Below are positions 27,501 through 46,302 of a stretch of DNA of 64,000 bases, one piece after another. Below the pieces are notes generated by a model that saw nothing but the letters and a program-made list of their open reading frames with translations, made no database searches and was not told where the DNA came from. This DNA comes from Clostridia bacterium (GTDB lineage Bacteria > Bacillota > Clostridia > Oscillospirales > CAG-272), in contig JAFVSI010000063.1 of NCBI GenBank assembly GCA_017503865.1, positions 10,393 through 74,392 on the forward strand, written 5' to 3'. Made by a program: the position numbers and the translations under genes. Position 1 is the first letter of the stretch. Each line of letters starts with the position of its first letter.

Positions 27501-30500
27501 TAATTTTAACAATGAAAAGAGCAATCACGAGGTGTATGGATTAACCAATGGTTGCGAAAGCTGGGAAATTTGTAATAACACTTCGGACAGAGTCGTTTTT
27601 AAGAAAAGCGATTATGAAACCGGTTGGACTGATGACTTTGAAGCACGTTACCCCGAGGATAATCTTGATTATACACGGTTAAAGAGGATGACTGACTGGG
27701 TTGCTTCAACAAACAGAGAAGCAGTTCAAACCGAAGAAGAAAAGGCGGAACTTTTAGCCAAATTCAAGAACGAGTTCGAAGACTATTTCGTTAAGACACC
27801 TATGTTGTTTTACTATATTTTCACAGAAGTGTTCTTGATGATCGATAACCGTGCAAAGAACTTCTTCCCAACGACCTATGATGGAGTACATTGGATGCCA
27901 TTGCCTTATGATATGGATACTGCAATTGGTATTAACAATGAAGGAGCACTTGTCTTCGATTATGATCTTGAAGACACAGACCACATCGACGGTGAAGATG
28001 TTTATAATGGTCAGGATAGTGTTTTGTGGTGTAATATCCGAGATGCTTTCAGTGAAGAGATAGCTGAGATGTATGCTTCTCTACGTAGTGGAACGCTTTT
28101 CAATTACGAAGAAACAGTAAAGCGCTTTTCTGAGCATCAAAAACCTTGGTGCGAGGCTATTTGGAACGAAGATGCGTACGAAAAATATCTCGAACCTCTT
28201 ATAAATGATAACGATGGTTCTTATTTGACAATGCTACAAGGAAACAAGGCAAGTCAACGAGAATGGTGGCTTCATAATGGTTTTAGGTATCGTGATAGTA
28301 AATATCAAACGGGAGATGCAAGCAAAGAGTTTATCACTCTTCGCTGTTATAACGTTGGAGATATCACCGTGACACCGTATAGCCATATTTGGTCGCGTAT
28401 TAAGTATGGCTCCTATACTGTAACCGAGAGAGGGAAAAGGAATGTGCCTGTTACACTTTCTTGTCCTCTTGATAAAATGACCGATACTGAGGTATATATA
28501 TATTCTGCGGATAGACTTGCAGACATCGGAGACCTAAGCCATTTGCAAGTTGGTTATGCTAACTTCTCAATGGCATCTAAACTCCAAAAATTGAAGCTCG
28601 GGGATAACGCTATTATGTATCAAAACCCCAAACTAACAGAGCTTTACGTTGGAAACAATGAGCTGTTAACAGAAATCGATATACGCAATTGTGTAAATTT
28701 AGCGCAGGCGATAGATTTATCTGGTTGTACAAGCATTGAAAAGGTTTATGCGGCTGGTAGCGGTATTTCGGCAGCGACATTGCCTGTTGGCGGTAAAGTA
28801 TCCACGCTGGAATTACCTGCTACGATTACCAACTTAACTATTCGCAATCAAAAATCCTTGTCTGTATTGAGTGTTGCTGGGTATAGTAATCTCGCAACGC
28901 TACGAATCGAGAATACACCCAATGTTCCTATTGAAACCATTTTAAATTCAGCCTCATCGCTTAACCGCGTGCGTCTCATAGGTGTAAGCTGGAATGCTAC
29001 GAGCGAAGATGCGTTGGCGTTAAACATAGAGAGACTTAAGTCTTGCGGTGGTATGGATGCAAACGGCGACAATACCAGTATAGCTGTTGTTAATGGTGTT
29101 GTTTATATCGATGCCATTTCCGATGAGCTACTCGAAGAAATACATGAGGTATTCCCAGATTTGACAGTTGTTGTAGGTGGCGTTATTACATATCTTGTAA
29201 GATATCTAAACTACGATGGCACGGTTTTGTTCAAAGACTTGGTTAACGAGGGCGGGGACGTTATTGATCCTGTTGCTCTCGGTTTGATCGATCCACCCAT
29301 TCGGGTTGGAACTGAAACCCTCGGTTATGCGTACATTGGATGGAACCATTTGCCCACCAATATACATAGCAACGTTGTTGTTTTAGCTCAATACGAAGAG
29401 GTTCCCAGCTACTTGGTAACATACCAAAACCCAGATGGAGAAATTCTATATGAATACTATGTAGCAGAGCATACGGATGCCATAGATCCTGTTTCCGCAG
29501 GAAAAATCGAAACGCCTACGATGGATGGTACCAGTGATGTAAAATATACCTTTAGTTCTTGGAATGCAATTCCAACAAATGTTCAAGGCGAGCATACCGT
29601 TGTAGCTCAATACATTACTGCATATGCGGTTCGGTTCTATAACGAATCTGAACTCTTGTATACTGACTGGGTAAATGAAGGCAATGATGCGGTCGATCCT
29701 GTTGTCAGCGGAGCGATTGATGCTCCTACAAAACAACCCTCACCGGAGTATAGATATGTATATAGTGGTTGGGGCATTCTTCCTACGAACATCACAGGAA
29801 GTATAAATGTAACCGCCCAATTCAGTTCCCAGAGTCAAGTATATAATGTTATATTTTATGATAAATCGAATTTACTTAATGTGTTATACAGCACAACTGC
29901 TTCCTATGGGGGTAATTGTGTTTATTCTGGTTCCGATTTGTTGATTCCCGATGGATGTGTTTTTATCGGTTGGATGGATAATTATGGCAATTCTTATTCT
30001 ACGAACTCTGTTTTGCTTAATGAGGATAATTGTAAGATATCTGGTGGAATTCCTGTGGATATTCAATTATATCCCATTATTGAAGTTCCAACGCCAAAAC
30101 TTCCTACAACTCAAAAAACATCCTTTGAGGATTATACTTGGTTAGAAATTAAAGCATTGAGTAACGCTATTGCAAGTGGCACTACGAATGAAGTCACCGT
30201 AACCTATGACGATGTTGAAAAAATTTACTCAATCCATGAAACCTCGACTGGCATTACAAGCACGGTAGCATTATTCGATACCAAGGATCTTACAATGAAT
30301 GATGGTACCACTATTACAATGCAGGTGTCTGGCTTCTTGCACGATGAGGACGAGAGTGGCAATAAAGTTGGTATTTCTATGGATACCAAAAACTTGTATT
30401 CAACTATAACCAAACAACATTATAGTGGTTCACACACATTTGCCCACTATAAGGTGAATGGCGTACAAGTTGCTGATAATCAGGCTACTTATACTCATAC

Positions 30501-31263
30501 TCAAGGAGAAGTGGCTGGGAATGTGGAGATTGAATCCACTGGAGAAACTTATATAGCAAGTGTTAAGGTCACAGATGTGACTGGTGCAATGACGTGGTAT
30601 TATTTTAGTAGCTCAACGGGTACAAACGACGAAAATAATGTTTATTACACGTTTGCCAAGTCAAACAATGTGGCTCAAGGCAATACCCTAAGTTGGAATG
30701 GACTAACTATCGATGCAACCAATGGAGCGTTTAGGATGCCCGAGGCATATAATAATAAGTTTGTTATTATGGAATCTGGTGCAAAGCTGATTGTACCCGC
30801 ACCCGCCGGAAGCACAGTTCTGATTACGATGTATTCGTCTTACAACATCGGCGGTTATGAGAATACTATTTTAAGAGCTTATTTAACTGGAGAATTGTTT
30901 GACAATATTCCAACGATTCTCTCTACAATCCTTGTACCCGTTAAAAAGGGTTCGAGCCTCGGTGGTATGTCTTATGAGGTCGAATATATGTATGATAAAG
31001 TGTATGCTTTGTCTATGGCGGAAGTTGGATTAAGCACTACAACAAATCCTTATAAATACGAGGGTAGTCAATATCCTATTTATACGGATAGCGCAAGTAG
31101 GATTAAACTTGCAGACAACGGTGCCGGTTCCGCCCACCGCTGGTGGCTTCGTTCGCCCGTTTATGACAGCGGGAGCAGCTTCTACAATGTGGGCTCGTCT
31201 GGCGACAGTTACGGCAGCGGTGCGTACACCAACTGTCGCGTCGCGTTCGGCTTCGCGCTATAA
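24586..31263 (+). CDS. giant receptor-binding tail protein; DGR target
   Basis: Domains by eye, N to C:
- BppU-type N-terminus (aa 1-115).
- Coiled coil.
- CotH-like region (VDVQGTSSAGYKKKNFKIKMK...IDNRAKNFF...MPLPYDMDTAIG).
- Leucine-rich repeats.
- 4 Listeria-Bacteroides/InlB-B-type repeats.
- C-terminal WWLRSP...VAFGFAL lectin-like tip carrying VR1. Confidence 0.9.
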   Translation: MKITQELSLDTSRENAYKVVHAKQYDEDSRFLKVTITTRGEEIDIPSGATVVFGVKRADLESHDFAGVVNTDGTVTVPLTNWMLQVAGKCVCDVSIIKDGEKFSTLNFSVFVEYAPTNETDITEDEKYDIFVNLIERVENVVDHIGELEQSALNSEASAAASARSAEDASQALLNAHEQIESAQELADKAETAAEDAQRYADQANEYCNEFADIMDQVVEATGDYESLDDRINDVSIDANDLGLEQDAETGFVYPTYRNVRSENGIPLAATGGGGGTSITYSITLRNLMEGRSFSVAENSPAVVNFSYVSIDEDGYDDGAGVGSIYIGGLKVATVNVPQGENELDISPYLSNGENSVKIKIENSDGMSKSVSYTITVIAISLSSTLLEEGKTEGFIVCHDDTLTVYYTPTGSGVKTIHFIMDGVEIGTSEVKSTGRSQTYIIERQAHGAHTLEIYAEMTISDVTVTSNKLHLEILWVATDSSEPIISFIANVDSATQGETINVPYMIYDPSTEVANLTLSVIDEDGDEYTSQQLSVDRGEHIWNVIDYPAGEIKLRFNVGGHTKNKEITVYENSVEIDHITDSLAFYFDPAGRNNNEENPEYWSNGVVAAQFSGVGFATADGWLSDDNGSPIFRLLPGGTITIPYEMFSSDKRTSGCSIEVEMTTHNVRDYDSIVMSCLSNGRGVKIASQYAQLKSEQSEIGMQFKEDERVRVSFVVEPKSLNRLIYVYVDGVMCGAIQYPEDDNFAQSPSLGITIGAESSGIDIYKVYFYDKGLTRLEVLNNYIADRSTLSDRLDAYRRNDIFNANEEVVINKLPTTLPYMVISCSELPQTKGDKKTCEITYVNPSDSSKNFTASGVEIDVQGTSSAGYKKKNFKIKMKNGLTYTSDGTVSENYKLRDDSIPVSVFCMKADVASSEGANNVELVRLYNDVCPYTTDAQASDNRVRVGIDGIPCVVFWQNPTSGVTRFWGKYNFNNEKSNHEVYGLTNGCESWEICNNTSDRVVFKKSDYETGWTDDFEARYPEDNLDYTRLKRMTDWVASTNREAVQTEEEKAELLAKFKNEFEDYFVKTPMLFYYIFTEVFLMIDNRAKNFFPTTYDGVHWMPLPYDMDTAIGINNEGALVFDYDLEDTDHIDGEDVYNGQDSVLWCNIRDAFSEEIAEMYASLRSGTLFNYEETVKRFSEHQKPWCEAIWNEDAYEKYLEPLINDNDGSYLTMLQGNKASQREWWLHNGFRYRDSKYQTGDASKEFITLRCYNVGDITVTPYSHIWSRIKYGSYTVTERGKRNVPVTLSCPLDKMTDTEVYIYSADRLADIGDLSHLQVGYANFSMASKLQKLKLGDNAIMYQNPKLTELYVGNNELLTEIDIRNCVNLAQAIDLSGCTSIEKVYAAGSGISAATLPVGGKVSTLELPATITNLTIRNQKSLSVLSVAGYSNLATLRIENTPNVPIETILNSASSLNRVRLIGVSWNATSEDALALNIERLKSCGGMDANGDNTSIAVVNGVVYIDAISDELLEEIHEVFPDLTVVVGGVITYLVRYLNYDGTVLFKDLVNEGGDVIDPVALGLIDPPIRVGTETLGYAYIGWNHLPTNIHSNVVVLAQYEEVPSYLVTYQNPDGEILYEYYVAEHTDAIDPVSAGKIETPTMDGTSDVKYTFSSWNAIPTNVQGEHTVVAQYITAYAVRFYNESELLYTDWVNEGNDAVDPVVSGAIDAPTKQPSPEYRYVYSGWGILPTNITGSINVTAQFSSQSQVYNVIFYDKSNLLNVLYSTTASYGGNCVYSGSDLLIPDGCVFIGWMDNYGNSYSTNSVLLNEDNCKISGGIPVDIQLYPIIEVPTPKLPTTQKTSFEDYTWLEIKALSNAIASGTTNEVTVTYDDVEKIYSIHETSTGITSTVALFDTKDLTMNDGTTITMQVSGFLHDEDESGNKVGISMDTKNLYSTITKQHYSGSHTFAHYKVNGVQVADNQATYTHTQGEVAGNVEIESTGETYIASVKVTDVTGAMTWYYFSSSTGTNDENNVYYTFAKSNNVAQGNTLSWNGLTIDATNGAFRMPEAYNNKFVIMESGAKLIVPAPAGSTVLITMYSSYNIGGYENTILRAYLTGELFDNIPTILSTILVPVKKGSSLGGMSYEVEYMYDKVYALSMAEVGLSTTTNPYKYEGSQYPIYTDSASRIKLADNGAGSAHRWWLRSPVYDSGSSFYNVGSSGDSYGSGAYTNCRVAFGFAL
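29185..30010 (+). repeat. four tandem ~71-73-aa coding repeats (B-repeat/Flg_new-like)
   Basis: Units start near 29185, 29404, 29621 and 29836. Each reads Y(L/A/N)V.(Y/F)....(G/E)..L......(E/Y)G.D..DPV.......P........Y.(F/Y).(G/S)W...PTN......V.AQ(Y/F). Confidence 0.7.
31121..31254 (+). repeat. DGR variable region VR1
   Basis: 134-nt alignment with TR1 (31826-31959) has 25 mismatches by hand count; 24 fall on TR adenines. Confidence 0.9.
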
Positions 31264-31825: not shown

Positions 31826-31959
31826 GTGCCGGTTCCGCCAACAACTGGTGGCTCCGTTCGCCCAATTATAACAACGAGAACAACTTCTACAATGTGAACT
31901 CGTCTGGCAACAATAACAACAACAATGCGAACAACAACTATCGCGTCGCGTTCGGATTC
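31826..31959 (+). repeat. DGR template repeat TR1
   Basis: AAY-rich template (NNWWLRSPNYNNENNFYNVNSSGNNNNNNANNNYRVAFG in the VR frame). Non-coding position between avd and RT. Confidence 0.9.
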
Positions 31960-32213: not shown

Positions 32214-33362
32214 ATGACAAGTAAAGAAAGGCACGAGGTAAGATACCAACGGCGTGCCGCAAGACGAAGAGCAAAACGAGAACAGGTGTGTAGTTTGTAT
32301 GATAACTACGATAACGTTTTTACTATTTCTAATTTATATCAATCGTATTTGCAAAGCCGGAAAAACGTTGGATGGAAAGATAGCGTTCAGCAATATAAGG
32401 CTAATGCGATTGTAAATATTCATAATACATATAAAACCATGCAAGCTCGCCAATTTAAGTCAAAGGGCTTTTATGTCTTTGATTTGTTTGAGCGAGGCAA
32501 ATTGCGAACCATCAGAAGCGTTAGCTTCAAAGAGCGTGTTGTGCAAAGATGTTTGTGTGACTACGCATTAACCCCGATATTATCGCGAACATTCATATAC
32601 GATAATAGTGCAAGCTTAAAAGGGAAAGGAATAAATTTTGCAATCGAGAGAATGACTACGCATTTGCACAGGTTTTATCGTGCCTATGGTGCAAATGGTT
32701 ATATTTTGCAATATGATTTCTCCAAATATTTCGATACAATTTCTCATGATAAAGTTAAAGAGATTGTATATAAGCACATAAAAGATCCAGATTTAAGACA
32801 ACTTACTATGTCATTGGTGAATGATTTTGGCGACATCGGGCTCGGGCTTGGTAGCCAAGTTTCTCAAATATTATCGCTTGCCGTGGCAAACGACATCGAT
32901 CACGCAATGAAAGAAAAACACAGGGCAAGATTTTATGGTCGATATATGGATGACGGATATATCATATCCCACGATAAGCAGTTTTTAAAAGAGTGCTACA
33001 ACACATTAAAAAGTATGTGCGCAGAGGCAGGCATCACTTTAAATACAAAGAAAACGCACATAACCCCACTTTCTCATGGGTTTACATTTCTTAAAATTAA
33101 ATTCTCATTAACTGCCTCTGGTAAAGTTGTTAGAAGACTATCGCACGATAGTAGCGTTCGTATGCGAAGAAAACTTAAAAAATTACGTAAAAAAGTTAAT
33201 GACGGGAAAATGGAAGTTCGTGATGTCGCGTGTTCTATGCAGTCATGGGTAGGTCATACTCTTAATATCGATGCATATAGAACAAGACAAAGGATGTTGC
33301 GATTATTTTATTCGTTATATAAAGATGATTTGAAAGGAAATAAAATATGTATAAAATACTAA
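32214..33362 (+). CDS. DGR reverse transcriptase, copy 1
   Basis: Carries LGLGSQVSQ (DGR-specific [LIV]GxxxSQ), RYMDDG (YxDD) and a thumb-like basic C-terminus. Confidence 0.9.
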   Translation: MTSKERHEVRYQRRAARRRAKREQVCSLYDNYDNVFTISNLYQSYLQSRKNVGWKDSVQQYKANAIVNIHNTYKTMQARQFKSKGFYVFDLFERGKLRTIRSVSFKERVVQRCLCDYALTPILSRTFIYDNSASLKGKGINFAIERMTTHLHRFYRAYGANGYILQYDFSKYFDTISHDKVKEIVYKHIKDPDLRQLTMSLVNDFGDIGLGLGSQVSQILSLAVANDIDHAMKEKHRARFYGRYMDDGYIISHDKQFLKECYNTLKSMCAEAGITLNTKKTHITPLSHGFTFLKIKFSLTASGKVVRRLSHDSSVRMRRKLKKLRKKVNDGKMEVRDVACSMQSWVGHTLNIDAYRTRQRMLRLFYSLYKDDLKGNKICIKY

Positions 33363-35060: not shown

Positions 35061-35273
35061 GCACAAAATGCCCGACAAAGTAGCCTTTAAGGTGAAATCT
35101 GTGCGTGTGCAAAAGGGGCATATAACCCTTCCTTCGGGATAAAGAAATACGTTGATGTGGTCTATCGGACGCTTCTTGCATTGCTCGCGATTGTGGTAGC
35201 GAGTTTAATGATAGGTACCACTATGCAGTTATTCCCACAATATTTTACTGTACGGGGTATAAAGGAATTAAAA

Positions 35274-36434
35274 ATGAATAGTAAGGAAAGACACGAGTTG
35301 AGATATCAGCGGCGCAAACAAAAGCGCCTTGAAAATAAAAAGCGTTATCAGGATTGTTATGATTACGATAAGGTGTTTACGTTCGAGAACCTTTATCGTA
35401 GCTATGAGAAATGTTGCGCGGGCGTCAGTTGGAAGCCCAGCACACAACTCTATAAGGCGAATGCCTTGATGAATATAAATCGAACATATAAGAGCCTACG
35501 AGAAGAAAGCTATGTTCCGAGAAAGCTAAATGAATTTGACATCATTGAACGTGGGAAGCAACGTCACATACAAAGTCCTACAATGAACGATAGGATAGTG
35601 CAAAGATGCTTTTGCGATTATAGTTTGATGCCGATTATTTGCAGGACAATTATCTATGATAATACCGCCTGCGTCAAAGGACGCGGATTGAGTTTTACCA
35701 TAAAGAGAATGACTCGGCATTTAGAGAAGTATTACAGAGAGCAGGGAAGTAATGAGGGATACGCATTACTATTTGATTTCTCGCAGTATTTTAAGAACAT
35801 CAGACACGACGTGGCTCTATCAATACTTGATGAAAAGATACCAGACAAGCGGTTGGTTAGGCTTGCAGAACTTATCATAAAGCAATATGGCAATGAAGGG
35901 TTGGGGCTCGGTAGCCAAGTGTCGCAATGTTGTGCATTGGCGCTCCCGGACAAGCTCGATCACCTCATTAAAGAGAAGCTAAAGATAAAGTATTATTGTC
36001 GCTATATGGATGATGGTTGCATTATCCACCCCAACAAAGATTATTTGCGTTATTGTCTTCAAGAGATTAAATCCGTATGCAGTGAGCTTGGAATTATAAT
36101 CGACGAAAAGAAAACGCAAATTGTAAAGATAAAATCTGGCATCAAGTTCCTTAAAGCTCGCTTTATTCTGACGAAGAGTGGACGAGTCATAAGGAAGCCG
36201 TATGCCAAGAGCGCAACGAAAATGCGTAAGAAACTCAAAGCGTTAAAGCTGAAGCTTGATGCAGGGCTCGTAACCTTTGCTGACGTTTGGACACCGTTCC
36301 AATCGTGGCTTGGTTATCACAAACAATTTCACGGATACTGGGCAAGACGAAGAGTCTGCTCTTTATTCAATAATTTATTTTACACAGGAGGAAACACAAA
36401 TGGATTGGCAAACAGTTTTACTTTCGGTACTTAG
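35274..36434 (+). CDS. DGR reverse transcriptase, copy 2 (start trimmed to MNSKERHELRYQRR)
   Basis: Carries LGLGSQVSQ and RYMDDG. The N-terminus aligns with RT1 MTSKERHEVRYQRR. The track's extra 39 codons overlap the conserved spacer RNA. Confidence 0.9.
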   Translation: MNSKERHELRYQRRKQKRLENKKRYQDCYDYDKVFTFENLYRSYEKCCAGVSWKPSTQLYKANALMNINRTYKSLREESYVPRKLNEFDIIERGKQRHIQSPTMNDRIVQRCFCDYSLMPIICRTIIYDNTACVKGRGLSFTIKRMTRHLEKYYREQGSNEGYALLFDFSQYFKNIRHDVALSILDEKIPDKRLVRLAELIIKQYGNEGLGLGSQVSQCCALALPDKLDHLIKEKLKIKYYCRYMDDGCIIHPNKDYLRYCLQEIKSVCSELGIIIDEKKTQIVKIKSGIKFLKARFILTKSGRVIRKPYAKSATKMRKKLKALKLKLDAGLVTFADVWTPFQSWLGYHKQFHGYWARRRVCSLFNNLFYTGGNTNGLANSFTFGT

Positions 36435-36867: not shown

Positions 36868-38055
36868 TTATTCGCTTAGTATATCCGTTAAAGTGCTTTG
36901 CATTATTGATGCAACCCTACTGATGCTGTCATCCTTGAGGTGGGTGTATATTTTCTCGGTAATACGAGAGTTGGAGTGACCTAAGTATTTAGCCATATGG
37001 GCATAGTCAATTCCGCGCTCAATACCGAGCGTGCAGAATGTGTGTCTAAGGTCGTGTATACGGATGTGCTTCAGGTTGTGTTTAGCAAGGAAACGCGAGA
37101 ACTTGTTGTTCATCTGGTTCGGGCGCAAGGGAAGTCCCTTTTCGCTGACGATAACATATTCTCCGAGTATTCCTTTTTCTTCTTGCTGTTTACGATATTC
37201 GAGCAAACAATCTTTTAGTAGAGGATCCATTACTAACGCTCTGCGGCTCTTCTTTGTTTTTGGTTCCTTGGTAATAATCTTCCCTTTGATCGGTGTTCTC
37301 ACTTGGGCTATATAAATGCGTCCTGTTTCGAAGTCGATGTTATCCCACGTCAACCCCGCTATTTCGCCGCGACGTAGCCCTTCCCACATTCCTAAATACA
37401 CAAATGCCTTCAGCCGTAAGTCTTGACTTTTATCTATGAGAGCGAGCAACTCTTTTACTTCTTGCGCAGTGTAAGCAGTCCCTTCGAATTCTTCGACGGG
37501 GAGTTTCCTTATCCTCTCGACAACATTATCGCTGATATACTCACAGTCCTTTGCGTAGTTAAAAACGGCGCACAGGAAAGTTCTGTCGGAGTTAATTGTT
37601 TTGGCTTTAAGTTTTCCTTCTTTTACGAGTCCGTCGATGTACTCCTGTACATCAATCTTTTTCACCCGGATAAGCTTTTTCTTTCCAAGTCCACGCGCCA
37701 CAATTCTTCGCAGGATATTGTAGTAATCCTCTTGAGTGGTAGGAGCGAGTGGTTTGTTTTCGATATAAGCCTTGGCACATTCTTCGATAGTGATTTGTGT
37801 ATTGGTACTGTGCTTGCCAAGATTAGTTCTTTCGTATTCGTGTTTCTTCAGGAGAGCCTCTGCTTCCTTGAGGGTATCACACGTCTTGAACGTTCTCTGT
37901 GGCTTACCAAGTTCGGCGCCGAGGTACAATGTCACGATGTACTTGCCAGTCTTTTTATTGCGAGCAATATTTCTCTTAACTGTTTCTCGTTCGCCTGTTC
38001 CTTTTTTACCTTGTTGAGTTCTTGTTAATTCTTTTACGTCTTCATTTTTCGTCAT
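36868..38055 (-). CDS. int: tyrosine integrase
   Basis: 395 aa with GLRRGEIAGL (box I Arg), HDLRHTF (HxxR) and YLGHSNSRITEKIYTHL (catalytic Tyr). Next to an attP-like region. Confidence 0.9.
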   Translation of the reverse strand: MTKNEDVKELTRTQQGKKGTGERETVKRNIARNKKTGKYIVTLYLGAELGKPQRTFKTCDTLKEAEALLKKHEYERTNLGKHSTNTQITIEECAKAYIENKPLAPTTQEDYYNILRRIVARGLGKKKLIRVKKIDVQEYIDGLVKEGKLKAKTINSDRTFLCAVFNYAKDCEYISDNVVERIRKLPVEEFEGTAYTAQEVKELLALIDKSQDLRLKAFVYLGMWEGLRRGEIAGLTWDNIDFETGRIYIAQVRTPIKGKIITKEPKTKKSRRALVMDPLLKDCLLEYRKQQEEKGILGEYVIVSEKGLPLRPNQMNNKFSRFLAKHNLKHIRIHDLRHTFCTLGIERGIDYAHMAKYLGHSNSRITEKIYTHLKDDSISRVASIMQSTLTDILSE

Positions 38056-38454: not shown

Positions 38455-38523
38455 TATGATTTCTCTGTTGATATGCAGTATGTATAGTATAACACGCGAG
38501 GCGAAAAATTGCAAGACCTCTTT

Positions 38524-38570
38524 ATAAAAAAAGCGCTCCTTTGCTGATGCATTGGAGCGCAAAATTTTTT
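38524..38570. terminator. terminator at the end of the long minus-strand operon (bidirectional layout)
   Basis: A7 run, GCGCTCC / GGAGCGC stem with an inner GC pair extension, then a T6 run. Abuts the stop of the 38569-38907 gene. Confidence 0.8.
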
Positions 38571-38907
38571 ATTTGTCAAGCTGAATTGATCCAAGCTCAA
38601 ACCAGCTTACTCTGACGGTATCGGAGCTTTCGCTCTTTGTGATTGCCTGTGACATTGAAACGCTGGTGTTGATGAATATCACTGGGACGTTGCAGATGAT
38701 TCTATCTTCAAGGACGTCATAGGTGATTTCTTTTTCACTGTCAACGAACCCGATTGGGGTGCGATTGTTCCCAAGCACAGGTTTTCCTTTGGCATATCTC
38801 ATAGAGTTTCTTACACACTCCTCAGAGAAAACTACGCGCTCTCTATTGGGGACAGTGGGGAAGGTTAGAGGGATTGTAGCTCGGGAAATGAAAATGTTTT
38901 CATCCAT
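38569..38907 (-). CDS. hypothetical protein
   Basis: 112-aa ORF, last gene of the minus-strand operon. Confidence 0.5.
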   Translation of the reverse strand: MDENIFISRATIPLTFPTVPNRERVVFSEECVRNSMRYAKGKPVLGNNRTPIGFVDSEKEITYDVLEDRIICNVPVIFINTSVSMSQAITKSESSDTVRVSWFELGSIQLDK

Positions 38908-38908
38908 A

Positions 38909-39160
38909 TTATTTCCCCTTTCTCATTTCGTCAAAGATGCGGTTCATTTCGTCATCCTTATAGGATGTTTGCCAATGTCGTTGCAGGTAAATGATGTGCT
39001 CGACTTGGCGCGGTGTGAGTAAGTATAAGTGATCTACAACAACCTCTCTCCGCTTGGAACGGTCGGGGTGTCCGCTGCCGCCAAATAGGCATTGGCAATG
39101 CTTGAGGTGGTAGTCGCAGATCGGGCACTTCTCAATTACGTTTTCATTATTGGGATTCAT
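38909..39160 (-). CDS. small Cys/His-rich (zinc-binding?) protein
   Basis: CPICDYHLKHCQC motif; 83 aa. Confidence 0.5.
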   Translation of the reverse strand: MNPNNENVIEKCPICDYHLKHCQCLFGGSGHPDRSKRREVVVDHLYLLTPRQVEHIIYLQRHWQTSYKDDEMNRIFDEMRKGK

Positions 39161-39172
39161 ATGTATACCTCG

Positions 39173-39637
39173 TTATTGTTTTGTTTTTCCCAGTTCTTTC
39201 AATGTCTTGCGAATGCGTGTGAGTCGGGAACAGAATTCAGAGCGAGTTAACACGGTTTCGCTCGGATTAGTTTTCCCTATAGAGTGAGTTAATACGGCGT
39301 TGCCAGTTGCCAACAAAGCATTTTGAAACGAAGGGTTAAGAGCGAGAGCTGAGAACGCCCTGTCCAAAAGGTCTTGGTATTCCTCGCTGTGGCGTGGTAT
39401 AGGTTGTCCTTTCCAGTATAAGGTTTGGTCTCTCCACCACTTCTTTTCTTTCCCTTTGAACTTTGCTTGTTTGCCAACCATTTTACAAACTTCTTTCTGC
39501 AGTTCGGGATTTTGAAATTTGAGTGACTGTAGAAATCCTTCCATACTATTGCACTCAACCCCATCGAAAATGAATGGATGGGGTGAGAAATTAGAAAGGG
39601 CATTTGATGGATAGCCTTTGCCAGAACCAATATCCAT
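39173..39637 (-). CDS. NADAR (YbiA/DUF1768)-like protein, divergent
   Basis: LSNFSPHPFIFDGVECNSMEGFLQSLKF parallels the NADAR FSNF..P....G....(S/T)EH.FQA.KF block. The later WG motif is not evident. Confidence 0.5.
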   Translation of the reverse strand: MDIGSGKGYPSNALSNFSPHPFIFDGVECNSMEGFLQSLKFQNPELQKEVCKMVGKQAKFKGKEKKWWRDQTLYWKGQPIPRHSEEYQDLLDRAFSALALNPSFQNALLATGNAVLTHSIGKTNPSETVLTRSEFCSRLTRIRKTLKELGKTKQ

Positions 39638-39638
39638 T

Positions 39639-39953
39639 TTATTCTCCTTTCAAAGTAGCGTCGGGTTCGTCTTTTCTGTGAGTAATCGAAATAGTCGTCA
39701 TTCCGAGAATGCGGCGAACTCTGCGCTCAACTTCTCTGTCGATAACCTGCCTGATCTGAGCATCAATAGCCTTGTCGATTTGGGGTTGCAAATCTCTCCC
39801 GTCCAGAGCAAGGTGAACTGCCTTGGTTATCTTTTCTTCCAAGGCTTCCTTAACGATGCCGGGAAGAGTACTTCTGTCGATGCCATTATCGGCGAGCATT
39901 TGCGTTAGGATTTTCCTAAGTTCAATCTGTTCTATGGTCATATTTACCTCCAA
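39639..39953 (-). CDS. hypothetical protein
   Basis: 104-aa ORF, 1-nt gap to the downstream gene. Confidence 0.5.
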   Translation of the reverse strand: MEVNMTIEQIELRKILTQMLADNGIDRSTLPGIVKEALEEKITKAVHLALDGRDLQPQIDKAIDAQIRQVIDREVERRVRRILGMTTISITHRKDEPDATLKGE

Positions 39954-39975
39954 AATTTTATATCAAACTCTTCTT

Positions 39976-40395
39976 TTATTTTCTTGTTGTTTCGAAGATA
40001 AGTTGCTCAATCTCTTCACGAGATAAGCGATATTCTTCGGGAATGCTATTGAACTTGTTCACAGCTTTCTCAACCTCGGACTGAATCTTTCCGAAACATA
40101 TACATCTCACTAACGTTCCATTGAGCGCGGCTTTGATGCAGGTGCGATACGAGTTGCATTTAGCACAATCACACTGAGCGTACTTATCCAAATCCAATGT
40201 TTCAATGGTGTTAGTTGAACCTGCGGGAGCAGAAGCAATATAAATGCTCAGCTCCTTCGCGTCACAGATAATTCTAAAACCACTCTTCTCCAACTCTTCT
40301 TTCAGTTGCGAAAAAGTAGTTTCGTCCGCGGGGAAAATTTGCATCCCCGCTTCAATGGGGACAACGCGGACATATTCATATTTATTGTTTTCCAT
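39976..40395 (-). CDS. hypothetical Cys-rich protein
   Basis: 139 aa with a CDCAKCNSYRTC...CIC cluster. Confidence 0.5.
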   Translation of the reverse strand: MENNKYEYVRVVPIEAGMQIFPADETTFSQLKEELEKSGFRIICDAKELSIYIASAPAGSTNTIETLDLDKYAQCDCAKCNSYRTCIKAALNGTLVRCICFGKIQSEVEKAVNKFNSIPEEYRLSREEIEQLIFETTRK

Positions 40396-40408
40396 ATGTA
40401 TTACCTTC

Positions 40409-40714
40409 TTATCTTTTTACTTTAAAATAGATGCGTCCGTTTTGTGGGGCGGTGGCGTGGCGCGGTTCTTCAAACATTAGCTTTATTCCGTCGAAACGTT
40501 CCTTGACAACTTCCTTGTATCCCACATTGTTTTTGTCGTCGGCATCACATTCGTAATAAACCTGAATTGCGCCGAATCCAATTTTCTCTCTCAAGAGCTG
40601 TTCGGCTTCCTTTGGTGTCTTTGCGCCAACTCTGTATCTTCCTGCTGTATTTCTCTGGCGCTGAGGTCGGCGGTGGTTGTCCACCAGCACTATATAGTTC
40701 TTGACTGGTTTCAT
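40409..40714 (-). CDS. hypothetical protein (start trimmed to MKPVKNYIVLV)
   Basis: TAATG stop/start overlap with the upstream Arr-like gene. Confidence 0.45.
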   Translation of the reverse strand: MKPVKNYIVLVDNHRRPQRQRNTAGRYRVGAKTPKEAEQLLREKIGFGAIQVYYECDADDKNNVGYKEVVKERFDGIKLMFEEPRHATAPQNGRIYFKVKR

Positions 40715-40995
40715 TATGTATTTACAACTCCTTTGATTCTTGCCTTGTCGCAGATACACTCTATGCCGTTCATCACGACCGTCCCCATTGGAGTGGCTTT
40801 ATAGATGATAGGGGTTCCGCCGAAGTAAGCACAAGCTTTCTTGGCATACATCTCTGCGGAGCGTAAGCTTATCGTAAGAAATACAGAGTCAAGATGTTTC
40901 TTACGGAAGTCTTCGCGAAGGCGTTGTGTATCTGAAGGTGGGAGCAGAATATCTCCCACTTGGCAAGCGGTTGATGTTCCGTGATAGTAAGTCAT
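40714..40995 (-). CDS. Arr-like mini ADP-ribosyltransferase candidate (start trimmed to MTYYHGT)
   Basis: 93 aa. YYHGTSTACQVGDILLP...SVFLTISLRSAEMYAKKA...PIIYKATPMG...ARIKGVV parallels rifampin-ART (Arr) FYHGT...IGDLL...(V/I)YF(S/T)..L..A.WGAELA...IYIVEPTG...LRIVG. Catalytic residues are uncertain. Confidence 0.4.
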   Translation of the reverse strand: MTYYHGTSTACQVGDILLPPSDTQRLREDFRKKHLDSVFLTISLRSAEMYAKKACAYFGGTPIIYKATPMGTVVMNGIECICDKARIKGVVNT

Positions 40996-40999
40996 ATCT

Positions 41000-41497
41000 T
41001 TAGTCCTTTGCGAGTAGTGTCTGCGGGCAAAAGATGATTGGTTTGCCGAGTGATTTTGCGTATTCGATTGTTTTGAAAACGCCACCCGCTTCTATGCCGT
41101 CGAAGATGGCGATAAGCATATCACAGTTATCCACCATATATTTATCTCTGTCGTCATCTGCCGTAGGAGTCCACTCTTTATGGATATAGGTGATTTTATT
41201 CGCCGCATTTATTGCCTGCTGATACCACATTAGATACCTTTTGTCGGGTGAGTTGCTTCCGTATCCCTTACAGGGGAATATAAGGTTAAGGTTGATGTTA
41301 TATCCCTTCTCAGCCAGATCCTTTACTGCGAGAGCATAAAGCAAATCGCTACCCTTAGCCATTCCAGAAAAAGCGACTGTGCAATTATTTTTAATAAGCA
41401 CATCTTTTATCCACGCAGAAACAGCCTGCCATTTGGTATTGCTCAAATTGTTGCCAAACAGACGTTGAGGTCTGTGACCAGTTAATGCAATTTTCAT
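41000..41497 (-). CDS. SLOG-superfamily protein, YpsA/DUF1273-like
   Basis: LTGHRPQRLFG, SGMAKGSDLLYA and RDKYMVDNCDMLIAIFDG..AGG match the YpsA layout (ITGYKP.ELG, SG.qlG.d.wAA, RN.fmvD.sD.ll.lyD). Confidence 0.65.
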   Translation of the reverse strand: MKIALTGHRPQRLFGNNLSNTKWQAVSAWIKDVLIKNNCTVAFSGMAKGSDLLYALAVKDLAEKGYNINLNLIFPCKGYGSNSPDKRYLMWYQQAINAANKITYIHKEWTPTADDDRDKYMVDNCDMLIAIFDGIEAGGVFKTIEYAKSLGKPIIFCPQTLLAKD

Positions 41498-41505
41498 TAT
41501 GTATC

Positions 41506-41739
41506 TTACCTTTCATATGCGCTGACTTGTCTGCCAGCTATGTATTCGTCTCGGGTTATCTCTTGCGCAGCAAAGACAGACCTCGAATGTTTTACGCCGG
41601 GCATCTTTCTGGCAATTGATGTAGCCATCGTGATGTTCCTTGCTTTTATGTAAAAAATAATATCTCGTGATCTTCCAGCGCCAACGTGACCTCTTGGCAC
41701 GTTAACGCGGTAGTATTTTAGTTCTTCATTTGTTTGCAT
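41506..41739 (-). CDS. hypothetical small basic protein
   Basis: 77-aa ORF. Confidence 0.5.
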   Translation of the reverse strand: MQTNEELKYYRVNVPRGHVGAGRSRDIIFYIKARNITMATSIARKMPGVKHSRSVFAAQEITRDEYIAGRQVSAYER

Positions 41740-41861
41740 TTACACCTGCCTTGTTATTCATAGCATTAAAGCCCGCCCACGCCAACGAGGGCTACGCAGG
41801 ACGGGCTTTTAGAGCTTCTGTGACCGTTTACTAACCCCAAAAGAATGAGGCTTAAACGGGC

Positions 41862-42350
41862 TTATTTTGCCTTCTGCGTGGTGCTTCCGAAACCGCCGTC
41901 GCGGACTCCGCTGGCATCATCGTCATCCATAAGGAAGAAGGGAAGAACGATAGCCTGTGCAAAACCTTCGCCCTTGGCGATGTTGAGGGTTTTGCCCTCG
42001 TGTCCGTCGTTGGTAATCTTAGCCCAGATGTGTCCCTCGTTAGAGGAACCGCAGTAGTCAGAGTCGATAATTCCGATTGTGTTATCGAGCTGAAGACGGA
42101 ACTTGAAGCCAAGTCCGCTTCTCGGCGCAATAGCCAAGAACTTGTCCCCGTCGAGAATAACACGGATACCAGTCGGAATTTTGATTGTTTCGCCCGGTGC
42201 GAGAGTGATGTCAAAGGGTGCGTAGAGGTCATATCCAGCACTACCCATCGTTGCACGGGCGGGCTTCTTTAGGTCGTTATAGCTTGTCTGCGGGAACTGC
42301 TCAAAGTCTTTGTTGAACTGTTCCTGCGAGATGATTTCAAATCTGTTCAT
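41862..42350 (-). CDS. dut: dUTP diphosphatase (trimeric dUTPase)
   Basis: GSAGYDLYAP, IAPRSGLG, IGIIDSDY and a C-terminal GGFGST motif. Start trimmed to MNRFEII (ATGA-type coupling). Confidence 0.85.
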   Translation of the reverse strand: MNRFEIISQEQFNKDFEQFPQTSYNDLKKPARATMGSAGYDLYAPFDITLAPGETIKIPTGIRVILDGDKFLAIAPRSGLGFKFRLQLDNTIGIIDSDYCGSSNEGHIWAKITNDGHEGKTLNIAKGEGFAQAIVLPFFLMDDDDASGVRDGGFGSTTQKAK

Positions 42351-42892
42351 ATGTAATGGTTCATCCTTTCTTTTGTGATGCCGTTTAATATCATTTCTTC
42401 CCAAGCCTTTTCATCTATGTGAGGCTCGCAGTTGATGACTGGTTGGCTCCATTCGGGCGGAGCAGTGGTTACAACGCAGGCATCGAATGGCGTTTCGTAA
42501 ACGTGTGGCTGATAGCGTTCTGAACTGATGTAGTATTTTTCATATAGTTGCATAGTTCCTTCATCAAAGAACGTTCTATCGAAACGATAACCGCGTCCTC
42601 TGTATTCGTATGAGGCTGGTGAATATACCCTTATGTAGCTTCCGTTCTTGAAATAGATAGCGTCTGCCACAATCTTCTCTACAATTTGCTCCACCGTATC
42701 AACCAGTTTTTCAAGCAAGTCGAGAAGTGCTCTATATACTATCTTCCGACGCTTTTCATCAGCCGCCACAACTCCGTATCGAAAGCCCGGCTCTGCCATT
42801 GTTTGTACGAGTATTGGCTCTAACAAATAGCGTGGGAACGGATCTCGTTTAATCGTTTGTTGCAATGAATAGTCCACAGTGACATTCACCAC
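42347..42892 (-). CDS. hypothetical protein ending in a WEEMILNG motif (start uncertain)
   Basis: 181-aa ORF from a GTG start, overlapping the upstream gene by 44 nt. Confidence 0.5.
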   Translation of the reverse strand: MVNVTVDYSLQQTIKRDPFPRYLLEPILVQTMAEPGFRYGVVAADEKRRKIVYRALLDLLEKLVDTVEQIVEKIVADAIYFKNGSYIRVYSPASYEYRGRGYRFDRTFFDEGTMQLYEKYYISSERYQPHVYETPFDACVVTTAPPEWSQPVINCEPHIDEKAWEEMILNGITKERMNHYI

Positions 42893-43046
42893 TTTCTCCG
42901 CGAGCTACCTGTTCACGAAACTCTTTGCATTTGCACTTGGTATCTTCGCTCTTGATAAGAGAGCAAGGGCAATAGCCACCGTTCTCTTTAAGTTTGTCGG
43001 TTATTTTTTTGAGTCTTTCTTTGTTATCGGTTAATCTTACCTTCAT
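42849..43046 (-). CDS. ferredoxin-thioredoxin-reductase catalytic-subunit-like (FTR/FDR-like) small redox protein
   Basis: 65 aa from MKVRLTD. Contains GGYCPC-x9-CKC-x14-CHCGLF, the CPC...C.C...CHC cysteine signature of FTR catalytic chains. Confidence 0.6.
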   Translation of the reverse strand: MKVRLTDNKERLKKITDKLKENGGYCPCSLIKSEDTKCKCKEFREQVARGESGECHCGLFIATND

Positions 43047-43519
43047 TCTGAAATCCTTTCCGCATATTGGTTGTCCGAGGCAAGTTTCACCCCGAGAATG
43101 TTGTCCCAATGCTTGTTTTGATAGGGAACGAAACGCCCCCATTTAACTACGATATTATTAAGCTCTCTGAGCTTGCTGACGTACTCTCTAACTTCGTTGG
43201 GATAGTAACCCGTGTAGATGATTACCAAATCATTCGTGTGCTCTCTGAGGGCTTTTATGAGGCTGTAGAGGTCATCCCAAGAGTCAAACGGTTCAAGCCC
43301 GCCCATAATGATTGCCGAGGTTATATGGTCCTTCATATACGTCTTGACAATCTCATCGATACTTACATCGATGTTTGGTGCGGTGGCGAGGGCGCTGTTT
43401 TGGCAACAGCAACCCTCGTTTTCTTTTTCGCATTTGAAGCTACAGTGGGGAAAGGCTACGAGCATCGAAGGAAGCCGATAGTCTTGGAACCATTCGCTTT
43501 CAATGCGTTTGACTATCAT
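43043..43519 (-). CDS. nrdG: anaerobic RNR activating protein (NrdG-like), atypical cluster motif
   Basis: Directly downstream of nrdD. Has QDYRLPSMLVAFPHCSFKC....CCC and GGLEP blocks. The cysteines are CX3C-X7-CCC rather than the canonical CX3CX2C. Confidence 0.6.
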   Translation of the reverse strand: MIVKRIESEWFQDYRLPSMLVAFPHCSFKCEKENEGCCCQNSALATAPNIDVSIDEIVKTYMKDHITSAIIMGGLEPFDSWDDLYSLIKALREHTNDLVIIYTGYYPNEVREYVSKLRELNNIVVKWGRFVPYQNKHWDNILGVKLASDNQYAERISE

Positions 43520-45267
43520 AGCTGCACTCTGTCCTCAAACTCCGCCGCCTTACCGCGGTTGAAGTTATCGATGCATCTCAAGTATCCAGTAATTCTCTGG
43601 AAGAGCTTGAGGCGCTTCTTACAGGTAGGACACTTGTTTGTGATATCTACAATGTATCCGTGCTCGTCGCAGTAGCGAGAGATAGGTGAAAGGCTCATAT
43701 AGGGAACACGGTAGTTATCAAACATAGCTTTTACGATTTTCTTTGCGTGCTCGCCGGGGATTGCGCCCTTGAGGTAGCAGTGAATAACCGTACCGCCAGT
43801 GAACTGGCTCTGGAGATCTTCCTGATGCTTGAATGTGGTGTTGATGTCAACGATATCTTTTACGGGAATATGACAACTGTTGGTGTAGTACACGTCATTG
43901 CCTTCACCCTGAGTAATGATATCGGGATACTTCTTCTTATCAAGCAACGCAAGACGGTAGCACGTTGACTCCGCAGGAGTTGCTTCGTAGTTGAATAGGT
44001 GACCTGTTTCCTCTTGGAACTCAAGAAGCTTCTGGCGGATGTGTTCGCCGACCTCAACGCAGAATGCGTGTGCTTCATCATCCAAGATATTCTTACCCAT
44101 AAAGTTTTCGCACATCTCATTCATTCCGAGAATACCAATAGTACTGAAATGGTTGTTGATGGTACCAACGTACTCCATATAAGCGGGGATGAGCTTGGTG
44201 TCGATTACGTTTGCCTGCAACCAAGCACGTTTGATTTCCAAACTCTCTTTCGCAAGATTGAGGTACCAGTCCAGACAAGCGAAGAACGATTCCTTGCTTG
44301 CGTTGTTTTCGTAAGCGATACGGGGAAGGTTAATGGTAACAACGCCGATAGAACCAGTGGAGTCGCCAGCACCAAACAGACCGCCGTTACGGTGGCGAAG
44401 CTCGGTCAAATCAAGACGGAGACGACAGCACATAGAGCGTACATCGCTGATATCGAGATCGCTGTTTACGAAGTTAGCGAAATAAGGTGTGCCATACTTG
44501 CCCGCCATTTCCCAGAGAAGCTTGTTGTTGGGGTTGTCCCAATCGAAGCGGGAATGGATGTTGTATGTAGGGATAGGATAAGCAAAGAGTTTTCCTTCTG
44601 CGTCGCCCTCAAGCATAATCTCAAAGAAGACTCTGTTGATAAGGTCAATCTCTCTCTGGCAGGAGCCGTATGTAAAGCTTACAAGCTCGCCACCGATAAC
44701 ACAGTACTCGTCCATCATATCTGCGGGAGGAGTAAGGTCGAATGTAAGATTGAAGAACGCGGGTTCTGCGCCGGCACGGCTGTTACTGTTTACGCTGAAC
44801 ACGAAGTTCTGCATAGACTGCTTAACTTCTGCATAAGACAGACGGTCTTGCTTAACGAACGGAGCGAGAAGAGTATCGAAACCGTTGAACGCAACGGCAC
44901 CCATAATCTCGTTCTGGAAAACAGTGACTAAGTTCGCACACTGGTTCAAGATAGAATCAAAGTGCTTTGCAGGAGCAGAGGTAGGGATGTTGGGAACTCC
45001 ACGAACACCCTTCATCAAGATGTCCTTGAGAGAATAACCTGTGCAATACAGGGTAAGACCGCCGAGGTCGTGAAGGTGCATATAACCATCGACATACGCT
45101 TTAGCGATATGCTCGGGATAAACCTCACGAAGCCAGTAGTCCTTGCTGACTTCTGCGGTGATGTATTTGTTCATCGCCCCGAAGCTGAACGGAGCATTTG
45201 AGTTTTCTTTTACGCGCCAGTCCGCCTGTTTCAAGTAGGACTCAACGATGTTTTTACTGCTTTTCAT
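43516..45267 (-). CDS. nrdD: anaerobic ribonucleoside-triphosphate reductase (class III)
   Basis: C-terminal Zn ribbon CPTC and glycyl-radical motif RITGYL. Start trimmed to MKSSKNIV, which has an AGGAGAAAGAAAT RBS. Confidence 0.9.
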   Translation of the reverse strand: MKSSKNIVESYLKQADWRVKENSNAPFSFGAMNKYITAEVSKDYWLREVYPEHIAKAYVDGYMHLHDLGGLTLYCTGYSLKDILMKGVRGVPNIPTSAPAKHFDSILNQCANLVTVFQNEIMGAVAFNGFDTLLAPFVKQDRLSYAEVKQSMQNFVFSVNSNSRAGAEPAFFNLTFDLTPPADMMDEYCVIGGELVSFTYGSCQREIDLINRVFFEIMLEGDAEGKLFAYPIPTYNIHSRFDWDNPNNKLLWEMAGKYGTPYFANFVNSDLDISDVRSMCCRLRLDLTELRHRNGGLFGAGDSTGSIGVVTINLPRIAYENNASKESFFACLDWYLNLAKESLEIKRAWLQANVIDTKLIPAYMEYVGTINNHFSTIGILGMNEMCENFMGKNILDDEAHAFCVEVGEHIRQKLLEFQEETGHLFNYEATPAESTCYRLALLDKKKYPDIITQGEGNDVYYTNSCHIPVKDIVDINTTFKHQEDLQSQFTGGTVIHCYLKGAIPGEHAKKIVKAMFDNYRVPYMSLSPISRYCDEHGYIVDITNKCPTCKKRLKLFQRITGYLRCIDNFNRGKAAEFEDRVQL

Positions 45268-45280
45268 ATTTCTTTCTCCT

Positions 45281-45484
45281 TTACTGTTTGAATACCCACT
45301 CGACTGCCTTGTTGTAATCGAGGAGTTCGTCGCCGACTTTAAGAGCCGGAGTCTTAGTAAGCCCGAGAGAAACCATCGTATTAACATCGGTAACTTCTTC
45401 GAAGTCAATCTTCTTCTTTACGAGCTGGGCTTTGAGAAGGTCACATTTGTTGCAACCTTCCTGAGTGAACAAAATAACTTTCAA
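45281..45484 (-). CDS. glutaredoxin/NrdH-like redoxin (TTG start)
   Basis: MKVILFTQEGCNKCDLLK has the CxxC thioredoxin-fold signature. AAGGAG lies 9 nt upstream of the TTG at 45484. Confidence 0.7.
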   Translation of the reverse strand: MKVILFTQEGCNKCDLLKAQLVKKKIDFEEVTDVNTMVSLGLTKTPALKVGDELLDYNKAVEWVFKQ

Positions 45485-45486: not shown

Positions 45487-46302
45487 TTATTCGCTCCTTT
45501 CGGTATTGAAAATTGAATAAGGGATATTGTGCGTTTTGCAGAATTCGATTTCCGCTTTGCAACCTGTGCTGCTTTCGCTATCGCCGAACACCCACATTTC
45601 TGTGGATCTCGCCAACAACCACAAACATTCCTTGAGCCCCTTATTGTAATCAAGTGAATGGTAGTGATAACCAAATGCGTGGACGGGGGAGAGGAATAGG
45701 TAGTTGGGATGTGAGTCCATAAGGTTTGCAACAATAGACTCAATCTCGCGCAAGTTTTCTTCTTTGCCTTGGAACGGATGACTTACGTAAATTACCTTAT
45801 CGTAAGGAAACTCAAGTTTCGCAAGAAATCTTTGTGCTGTTACTGCCAAATCCTCGATTGTGCCATTCTTCTCTACGACGTAGTCATAGGTCAGGTCGAA
45901 AACTCCAGCATCAGCGATGTTGCTGACAATGTGTGCCACGGCATCTCTTTTAACAAGAACCGTTTTAGCACCGAAATCTTTTTGTGCTTTTTCAATTTGG
46001 AATTTCTCCCTCATATCGATGCACAAAATGTCTGCGTCGATGATACCGCTACGGAAATCCTGCATAACCTTTTCCATAGACTTATAATTGTTGTCGTTGT
46101 ATGTATCAATGAGCACTTTCAAGTCGGAAAGAAACTTTCTGTCGCGCTCGGTTTTACCGCCATCCCATCCTGCTTGCTTTGCAAGTTCCTTAACGGGGTT
46201 AACGATGCTTGTGTGGTAGACTTTTTTGAAGCGAGAAAGACAACCTACAAAGGTGTCTTTCCCAACTCCGCCGGAACCATTGATAATCAGTATCTCTTTC
46301 AT
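45487..46302 (-). CDS. fusion protein: P-loop dNMP-kinase-like N-domain + DUF4406/nucleoside 2-deoxyribosyltransferase-like C-domain
   Basis: NGSGGVGKDT Walker A at the N-terminus. The C-terminal part (VIYVSHPFQGKEENL...FLSPVH...EMWVFGDSESSTGCKAEIEF) matches the DUF4406 layout. Confidence 0.6.
   Translation of the reverse strand: MKEILIINGSGGVGKDTFVGCLSRFKKVYHTSIVNPVKELAKQAGWDGGKTERDRKFLSDLKVLIDTYNDNNYKSMEKVMQDFRSGIIDADILCIDMREKFQIEKAQKDFGAKTVLVKRDAVAHIVSNIADAGVFDLTYDYVVEKNGTIEDLAVTAQRFLAKLEFPYDKVIYVSHPFQGKEENLREIESIVANLMDSHPNYLFLSPVHAFGYHYHSLDYNKGLKECLWLLARSTEMWVFGDSESSTGCKAEIEFCKTHNIPYSIFNTERSE

Follow-up and report, generated by a model that had tools for sequence, protein, structure and literature searches.

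The phage in the window analysed here (64,000 nucleotides of contig JAFVSI010000063.1, Clostridia bacterium assembly GCA_017503865.1, at its full length) carries at positions 39173-41497 six minus-strand genes, designated A to F, three of which share an NAD/ADP-ribose theme: gene A encodes a SLOG protein, gene B a minimal protein with the ADP-ribosyltransferase (ART) fold, and gene F a NADAR protein. The array that contains them is a mosaic in which the themed genes are inherited separately: A, D and F are independent optional cassettes, whereas B is a stable resident. The stretch is probably a variable cargo array of independent single-gene cassettes, in which the three themed genes act separately. 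The original prediction, made from the sequence without database searches, had combined A, B and F as binder, writer and eraser of ADP-ribose in a single module, and the natural variants do not support this: A and F are independent single-gene indels, and homologues of F and B have no conserved partners outside the lineage. Its remark that the arrangement is not a described system is correct, because the genes do not form a system; that phage genomes tend to carry SLOG and NADAR genes together has already been published (PMC9503650).

Natural variants of the array

The genes of the array and the two indels that carry its optional themed genes are as follows (positions are those of the window):

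41506-41739, minus strand: gene I, 77 residues, flanks A; 100% conserved and used as the anchor for the survey of variants
41000-41497, minus strand: gene A, 165 residues, stand-alone YpsA-clade SLOG protein; optional cassette
40714-40995, minus strand: gene B, 93 residues, minimal Arr-like ART-fold protein; constant in the phage lineage
40409-40714, minus strand: gene C, 101 residues, basic protein; the start at 40714 is supported by the alignment of the C family
39976-40395, minus strand: gene D, 139 residues, cysteine-containing protein; lineage-restricted, optional, with two alleles
39639-39941, minus strand: gene E, 100 residues with its revised start (open reading frame listed as 39639-39953, 104 residues)
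39173-39637, minus strand: gene F, 154 residues, gp30.3/AdfN-type NADAR protein; optional cassette
38909-39160, minus strand: gene G, small gene of the same array
38569-38907, minus strand: gene H, small gene of the same array
40998-41502, 505 bp: indel carrying A, missing from contigs L006 and L007, with flanks 96-97.5% identical (blastn breakpoints)
39134-39654, 521 bp: indel carrying F, in whose place L006 and L007 have 11 nt (blastn breakpoints, junction sequences)

Contigs belonging to this phage species, whose flanking genes are 97-100% identical, were collected via homologues of D, via gene I (23 contigs read, of 111 index blocks listed) and by a genome scan. Sixteen distinct contigs, including the window, cover both the A and the F slots (L006 and L065 being the same), and they show the following combinations:

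A and F both present: 2 of 16 (the window and L045)
A present, F absent: 4 of 16 (L046, L047, L052 and L064)
A and F both absent: 10 of 16 (L006, L007, L048-51, L061-63 and L067)
A absent, F present: 0 of 16

B and C are present in all 16 contigs, and B is found in 20 of 20 loci of the lineage. The occurrence of the mini-ART in every contig, with or without F, indicates that the NADAR protein is not an obligatory partner of B. The complete order A-B-C-D-E-F, and with it the themed trio, recurs in just one other variant, L045, which belongs to the same phage species by its flanking identity of 97-100% and is thus not independent evidence of a conserved cluster. The contigs L006 and L007 are 94-97.5% identical to the window at the DNA level across the region, and the junction sequences show that without A the stop codon of gene I directly meets the start of gene B. 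One of the A-bearing contigs without F (L052) is a prophage copy in a Eubacteriales metagenome-assembled genome (MAG).

Gene D varies on its own account, being absent from L052, L064 and L067 and represented by a 57%-identical allele in L045 (6001-6417), L046, L047 and L070. The two alleles diverge inside phages that are otherwise 97-100% identical, and their last 21 residues are identical; of the 7 cysteines of D, four are kept in the second allele. Relatives of D amount to 9 clusters among 5.8 billion proteins and are confined to the phage lineage. Other slots also hold alternative cargo: a DUF488-N3a gene replaces H in L045 (7486-7896) and L067 (2267-2677), and in the partly covered L070 the place of A is taken by an unrelated 95-residue gene (2541-2828), while D is followed by a gene for an ATP-dependent DNA ligase (3881-4972). 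Near-identical phages that differ by a SLOG, a NADAR or a D cassette constitute a natural isogenic series for the study of gene function. More generally, domains that share a theme within a phage operon should not be called a system before co-inheritance is shown, a question that the natural variants answer directly here.

Outside the lineage the themed genes are not found together. None of 21 viral loci with homologues of F (55-76% identity, many on contigs of 100-500 kb) has any of A to E within 8 kb, the relatives of A having been sought over that distance by phmmer at E <= 1e-3. Likewise, none of ~20 loci with homologues of B (viral contigs, the phages phT4A and ZZ1, and Clostridia MAGs) contains F, C, D or E, and a SLOG gene lies near a B homologue only in L014 and L015, where it is on the opposite strand. 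Clustering of the same-strand open reading frames within 2.5 kb of B homologues at 15 loci recovered no recurrent neighbour family, only lineage-specific neighbours.

Gene F belongs to the gp30.3/AdfN family

The product of gene F passes the Pfam Phage_30_3 profile (PF08010) with E = 1.2e-58 and 197.3 bits against a cut-off of 36, its residues 8-143 covering profile positions 1-137 of 138, and is 37% identical to T4 gp30.3 over its full length (BLASTP, E = 5e-30). Its description as a divergent NADAR protein in the original prediction was correct as to the family, but 'divergent' understated the case, for F is a full member of the gp30.3/AdfN family. The T4 protein, renamed AdfN (anti-DarT factor NADAR), is a NADAR-fold DNA ADP-ribosylglycohydrolase that strips the ADP-ribose made by DarT1 from phage DNA and is both necessary and sufficient against DarTG1; its E36A and K43A variants are inactive, and an RB69 allele truncated by 15 C-terminal residues is non-functional (bioRxiv 10.1101/2024.07.11.602962). 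An independent study demonstrated that it acts on guanine-ADP-ribose in vitro (PMC11125620).

In the BLASTP alignment, E33, K40 and H118 of F stand opposite E36, K43 and H123 of T4 gp30.3, with the last-strand histidine embedded in 'VLTHSI' of F (H118) and 'VLKHSI' of T4 (H123). The C-terminus is intact, as the alignment reaches the last residue of gp30.3 (152) and F runs 8 residues further. The last-strand residue is reported to be His in phage NADARs, Glu in the YbiA type and Asp in the DarT1-linked type (PMC11125620); H118 would correspond to this distinguishing histidine, which carries no number in that study. Judged by the alignment, F has every sequence feature known to be required for AdfN activity. 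It is a predicted DNA ADP-ribosylglycohydrolase for which an anti-DarT role is plausible, and the earlier suggestion of a counter to DarT-type immunity finds support, for F, in the gp30.3/AdfN family (10.1101/2024.07.11.602962; PMC11125620). F also weakly matches the riboflavin-intermediate N-glycosidase model TIGR02464 (E = 0.008), and a search of the PDB with its sequence gave chance-level matches only.

The gp30.3 branch has been described as mainly a trait of the T4 superfamily (10.1101/2024.07.11.602962), and by its family match F is a new AdfN/gp30.3 member in an unusual carrier. This would extend the AdfN branch to large uncultivated phages and to an integrase-bearing temperate phage with a host among the gut Eubacteriales, which hints that DarT1-like ADP-ribosylation of guanine exerts pressure in those communities too.

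Gene A is a YpsA-clade SLOG protein

The SLOG assignment of gene A in the original prediction is upheld by the Pfam YpsA SLOG profile (PF06908), which it passes with E = 1e-9 and 39.1 bits against a cut-off of 27.7, residues 3-138 covering profile positions 1-140 of 168. Its score against the NCBIfam YpsA equivalog PRK13660 (15 against a cut-off of 165) is far too low for an orthologue of Bacillus subtilis YpsA, indicating that A is a member of the clade and not that orthologue. The N-terminal region contains two glycine-rich segments, 'TGHRP' and 'SGMAKGSD', which are presumably the ligand loops of the YpsA family. A scan of IMG/VR yielded no relatives of A, and a sequence search of the PDB yielded chance-level matches only. 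In the literature on SLOG or YpsA and phage anti-defence we encountered no experimental work on stand-alone phage SLOG proteins. On its profile match, A is an ordinary viral YpsA-clade SLOG protein.

Gene B represents a widespread family of ~90-residue Arr-like proteins

The least-charted piece of the array is gene B. Its product scores 21.8 bits against the Pfam profile Arr-ms (PF12120), below the cut-off of 25, over profile positions 1-65 of 99, and 18.6 against NCBIfam Arr (NF033144; cut-off 130); among 38 members of the B family, 7 reach an Arr family match at E <= 0.01. It matches phrog_2110 with E = 4e-20, PHROG 2110 being a family without assigned function. We collected at least 121 homologues of ~91 residues, in which Y4, H5, G6, T7, S8, P19, P20, R27, E28, R31 and V38 are invariant, as are F39, T41, S46, A47, Y50, A51, K53, G60, P69 and A85. 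A search of the PDB with the B sequence and with the family profile remained at chance level and did not recover Arr, whereas the sole, weak Arr-2 match came from another family member, P0014 (E = 0.15).

The AlphaFold model of B, built with the family alignment, has a predicted local distance difference test (pLDDT) score of 91. With this model, the top Foldseek match in the PDB is Arr (2hw2; E = 2.7e-4, probability 1.00), followed by 9iaf and 9iba; the template modelling (TM) score of the first is 0.66 on the query and 0.46 when normalised to Arr. After Arr come Tpt1 and cholera- and pertussis-type toxins with weak E values of 0.05 to 1. DarT entries are absent from the 50 best PDB matches, and the Rhs ART toxin TreTu (7zhm) appears at E ~1.2. 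By this ranking B has the ART fold, and Arr is the closest relative of solved structure, as the original prediction had proposed from motifs, even though the protein stays under the Arr family cut-offs.

An identification of B as Arr itself was rejected, as B is a third shorter, scores below the cut-offs and differs in the active site. The active site of the M. smegmatis enzyme is taken by us to be H19, Y49 and D84, in the numbering of Baysarowich et al. 2008. At these positions the B family has an invariant His (within YHGT) and an invariant Phe in place of the Tyr; it has no invariant acid at the position of Asp84, but a short way downstream are a conserved Glu/Gln (E79 in B) and Asp83. A viral protein 49% identical to B carries the database name 'Ms Rifampin ADP-ribosyl transferase'. 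We take Arr to belong, alongside Tpt1/KptA, to the 'H-H-h' clade of ART-fold proteins. Members of this clade act in RNA repair, in the modification of small molecules, or in the production of soluble ADP-ribose derivatives (Iyer et al., PMC9503650).

The B family occurs in 610 deposited phage genomes (tblastn), which by organism name are mostly phages of Escherichia, Klebsiella, Acinetobacter and Aeromonas; the two that were inspected, phT4A and ZZ1, are T4-like Straboviridae. Large uncultivated phages also carry the family, as do temperate phages of gut Clostridia. Not one of 30 listed records bears a functional name, 29 being annotated as 'hypothetical protein' and one lacking an annotated feature. 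T4 itself appears to lack a member, as the family's hidden Markov model found nothing in positions 1-76,000 and 100,001-168,903 of its genome. The intervening 76-100 kb are presumably mostly structural genes.

A search of the literature on 'Arr-like' and 'phage' returned no relevant paper on the family, which is unstudied. It might, as a tentative proposal, use NAD+ to ADP-ribosylate a small molecule or a nucleic-acid end in the manner of the Arr/Tpt1 clade, in the service of host takeover or counter-defence. If catalytic, these ~90-residue proteins would undercut both Arr (about 140 residues) and YarT (114 residues) in size, and so widespread a family with an Arr-like ART fold is a reasonable target for biochemistry.

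Several further occurrences of the domain deserve mention. In three Oscillospiraceae MAG contigs (L057, 16-429; L058, 884-1294; L059, 3618-4301) the reading frame extends well past the mini-ART domain, and a viral protein of 714 residues named PcfJ-like (BFVD A0A6J5NZA6) contains the B fold, such that the domain may also exist in fused form. In Escherichia phage phT4A (L021, Slopekvirus) the mini-ART homologue (4971-5288) lies ~4 kb from a nicotinamide phosphoribosyltransferase gene (9597-10231) and is also close to Srd and to a gene for RNA ligase. The neighbourhood may be a further one related to NAD, and was not seen in ZZ1.

Genes C, D and E

Profile searches of Pfam, PHROG and NCBIfam gave no family assignment for C, D or E, with E matching the function-less phrog_19738. 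The C family comprises 160 homologues, which are basic proteins of ~100 residues with an invariant NT.GRYRV.AK motif; the model of C (pLDDT 84) has no fold match in the PDB. Within the lineage C always adjoins B. We considered C as a general partner of B and rejected it, as the C family occurs without B and other B loci are devoid of C. In bacterial contigs, one C-family member adjoins a PemK toxin gene (L060).

Phage context and layout of the operon

The window is occupied by a phage with a plus-strand structural block, a tyrosine integrase and then a long minus-strand block that, by Pfam matches, holds a Pol III alpha-like polymerase, a primase-helicase, a PD-(D/E)XK nuclease, NrdD and NrdG, and a dUTPase. 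The genes that frame the array are:

36868-38055, minus strand: tyrosine integrase bounding the array (Pfam Phage_integrase, E = 6e-30)
41862-42404, minus strand: dUTPase, in the upstream part of the same operon (Pfam)
43043-43519, minus strand: NrdG-like activase, same operon (Pfam)
43516-45408, minus strand: NrdD, same operon (Pfam)

Upstream of A the order is gene I, dUTPase, a gene for 181 residues, NrdG and NrdD, and G and H lie downstream of F. Open reading frames are present at the coordinates given for all six genes by the original prediction, with a single start shortened: homologue alignments back the start of B at 40995, and the start of E is most likely the ATG at 39941, because homologues align from residue 5 of the listed frame and a GGAGG lies upstream. 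Spacing is 8 nt between I and A, 4 nt between A and B, 13 nt between C and D, 34 nt between D and E, 1 nt between E and F, 12 nt between F and G, and 1 nt between G and H, while B and C overlap by 1 nt (TAATG). The tight packing that had been taken to mark out A to F is real, but it runs through the whole minus-strand array, from the replication genes to 38569, and is not peculiar to these six genes. A consensus scan detected no strong promoter or terminator inside the array. Megablast with 38500-42500 retrieved no near-identical phage from the GenBank phage collection, and the PADLOC defence models gave no meaningful matches.

Elsewhere in the phage, just upstream of NrdD, 45487-46302 (minus strand) encodes a 271-residue protein with a DUF7768 domain (E = 4e-6), for which sister contigs show a faint match to deoxynucleoside monophosphate (dNMP) kinases; it may be another nucleotide-handling gene. 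A second reading frame of the Phage_integrase family is located at 59592-60593 (minus strand, E = 5e-13), distant from the main integrase. The phage also contains a diversity-generating retroelement, with 134-nt repeats at 31121-31254 and 31826-31959 that are 81% identical; at 24 of the 25 mismatches the intergenic copy has A and the variable copy a different base. The intergenic copy, upstream of a reverse transcriptase, is the template repeat, and the variable repeat lies at the 3' end of a reading frame for 2225 residues (24586-31263). Reverse transcriptase genes are found at 32214-33362 and 35157-36434, the second RVT_1 frame adjoining the integrase.

A probable variable cargo array and competing explanations

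The stretch probably represents the variable cargo end of a long early operon for replication and nucleotide metabolism, between dUTPase and integrase, in a temperate phage whose host is a gut member of the Eubacteriales (Clostridia). Its cassettes would meet where one gene ends and the next begins, each supplying its own ribosome-binding site or using an existing one, and would be gained, lost and swapped between near-identical phages. Homology and the conserved catalytic residues suggest that F most likely removes ADP-ribose placed on guanines of the phage DNA by a putative DarT1-like toxin of the host, and that this would rescue replication. Family membership points to A most likely binding or cleaving a nucleotide or a ligand derived from ADP-ribose, and the fold and YHGT motif of B are consistent with a protein that most likely binds NAD+ and transfers ADP-ribose to some acceptor, its catalysis being putative. 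The NAD/ADP-ribose theme would then stem from one selective pressure on all three genes, exerted by host immunity that works through NAD+ or ADP-ribose, and not from a common mechanism.

Certain observations weigh against this picture. F is present in 2 of 6 contigs with A and in 0 of 10 without it (one-sided Fisher p = 0.125 by our own arithmetic), and a loose association of A and F may exist; as these contigs are related and not independent, we make no claim on a statistical link between the two genes. A adjoins genes of nucleotide metabolism and could serve that metabolism and not counter-defence. The Phe in place of Tyr and the lack of an invariant acid imply that B may bind NAD+ without catalysis. 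Finally, T4 AdfN is reported to work best on T-even modified DNA, and the substrate preference of F may differ.

An alternative that we regard as unlikely, yet the best placed of those considered, assigns the genes to nucleotide and NAD housekeeping, with A processing nucleotides as a SLOG enzyme and F acting on small molecules as an N-glycosidase like YbiA, both extending the set of NrdDG, dUTPase and dNMP-kinase-like genes. The array directly follows NrdD, NrdG and dUTPase, small-molecule nucleotides are the substrates of LOG-type SLOG enzymes and of YbiA-type NADARs (PMC9503650; PMC11125620), and the weak TIGR02464 match of F is in keeping with such a role; but F falls within the gp30.3 branch, in which the member that has been tested works on ADP-ribosylated DNA (10.1101/2024.07.11.602962), and A matches the YpsA clade and not the LOG clade. 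Moreover, dispensability among near-identical phages fits accessory or conflict genes better than core metabolism.

It is somewhat less probable still that A, B and F are expressed together as one integrated module for ADP-ribose signalling or host takeover. The three domains are real and are encoded within 2.3 kb on a single strand of the operon, the full order recurs in L045, F is seen only where A is present, and DNA viruses tend to carry SLOG and NADAR genes together (PMC9503650). Against this, L045 belongs to the same species, A is found without F in four contigs and B without either in ten, no co-location is found outside the lineage, and the themed genes are parted by unrelated and separately variable genes. 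The last candidate, a toxin-antitoxin-like pair in which F shields the phage or lysogen from ADP-ribosylation by B, has very little to commend it: a small stand-alone ART with a NADAR antitoxin is known in YarT (114 residues) and YbiA (PMC11125620), and B and F have the corresponding folds, but the reading is contradicted because B is always present and F usually absent (F is missing beside B in at least 14 contigs of the species, the integrated prophage L052 included, and at every other B locus examined, and 21 F-homologue loci lack B), the two genes are not adjacent, with three genes and ~1.1 kb between them, and the nearest folds to B are Arr and Tpt1, not DarT.

Comparison with known systems

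The independent cassettes described here can be set beside several known systems. F resembles AdfN/gp30.3 in its near end-to-end family match and in retaining the catalytic residues and the C-terminal region; it differs in its setting, an integrase-bearing temperate phage of a Clostridia-type host with relatives in large uncultivated phage contigs, and in being a facultative single-gene cassette. The nearest fold to the B model is that of Arr (2hw2, 9iaf, 9iba; PF12120), with which B shares the N-terminal [FY]YHGT strand, the next hydrophobic strand and a helix. Arr proteins, however, have 138-151 residues against the 93 of B, which is devoid of the C-terminal part of Arr, so that modification of rifamycins is not to be assumed.

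SLOG, Macro and NADAR domains co-occur in DNA viruses above expectation, and a role of the viral genes that encode them against immunity based on ADP-ribose has been predicted (Iyer, Burroughs, Anantharaman and Aravind 2022, PMC9503650). The phage studied here agrees with these neighbourhoods in having a stand-alone YpsA-clade SLOG together with a NADAR, but its A and F genes are neither fused nor adjacent (four genes lie between them), are inherited independently, and have no Macro or Nudix gene seen in the array. The YarT-YbiA and DarT1-NADAR pairs (PMC11125620; PMC11543638) likewise combine a small stand-alone ART-fold protein and a NADAR hydrolase in one operon, whereas B and F are neither adjacent nor co-inherited, and B is Arr/Tpt1-like and not DarT-like. 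While a counter-defence role is predicted here for F alone, the array in its organization resembles the 'moron' or anti-defence arrays at the ends of early phage operons, which have the same small packed genes, single-cassette swaps and alternative cargo per slot.

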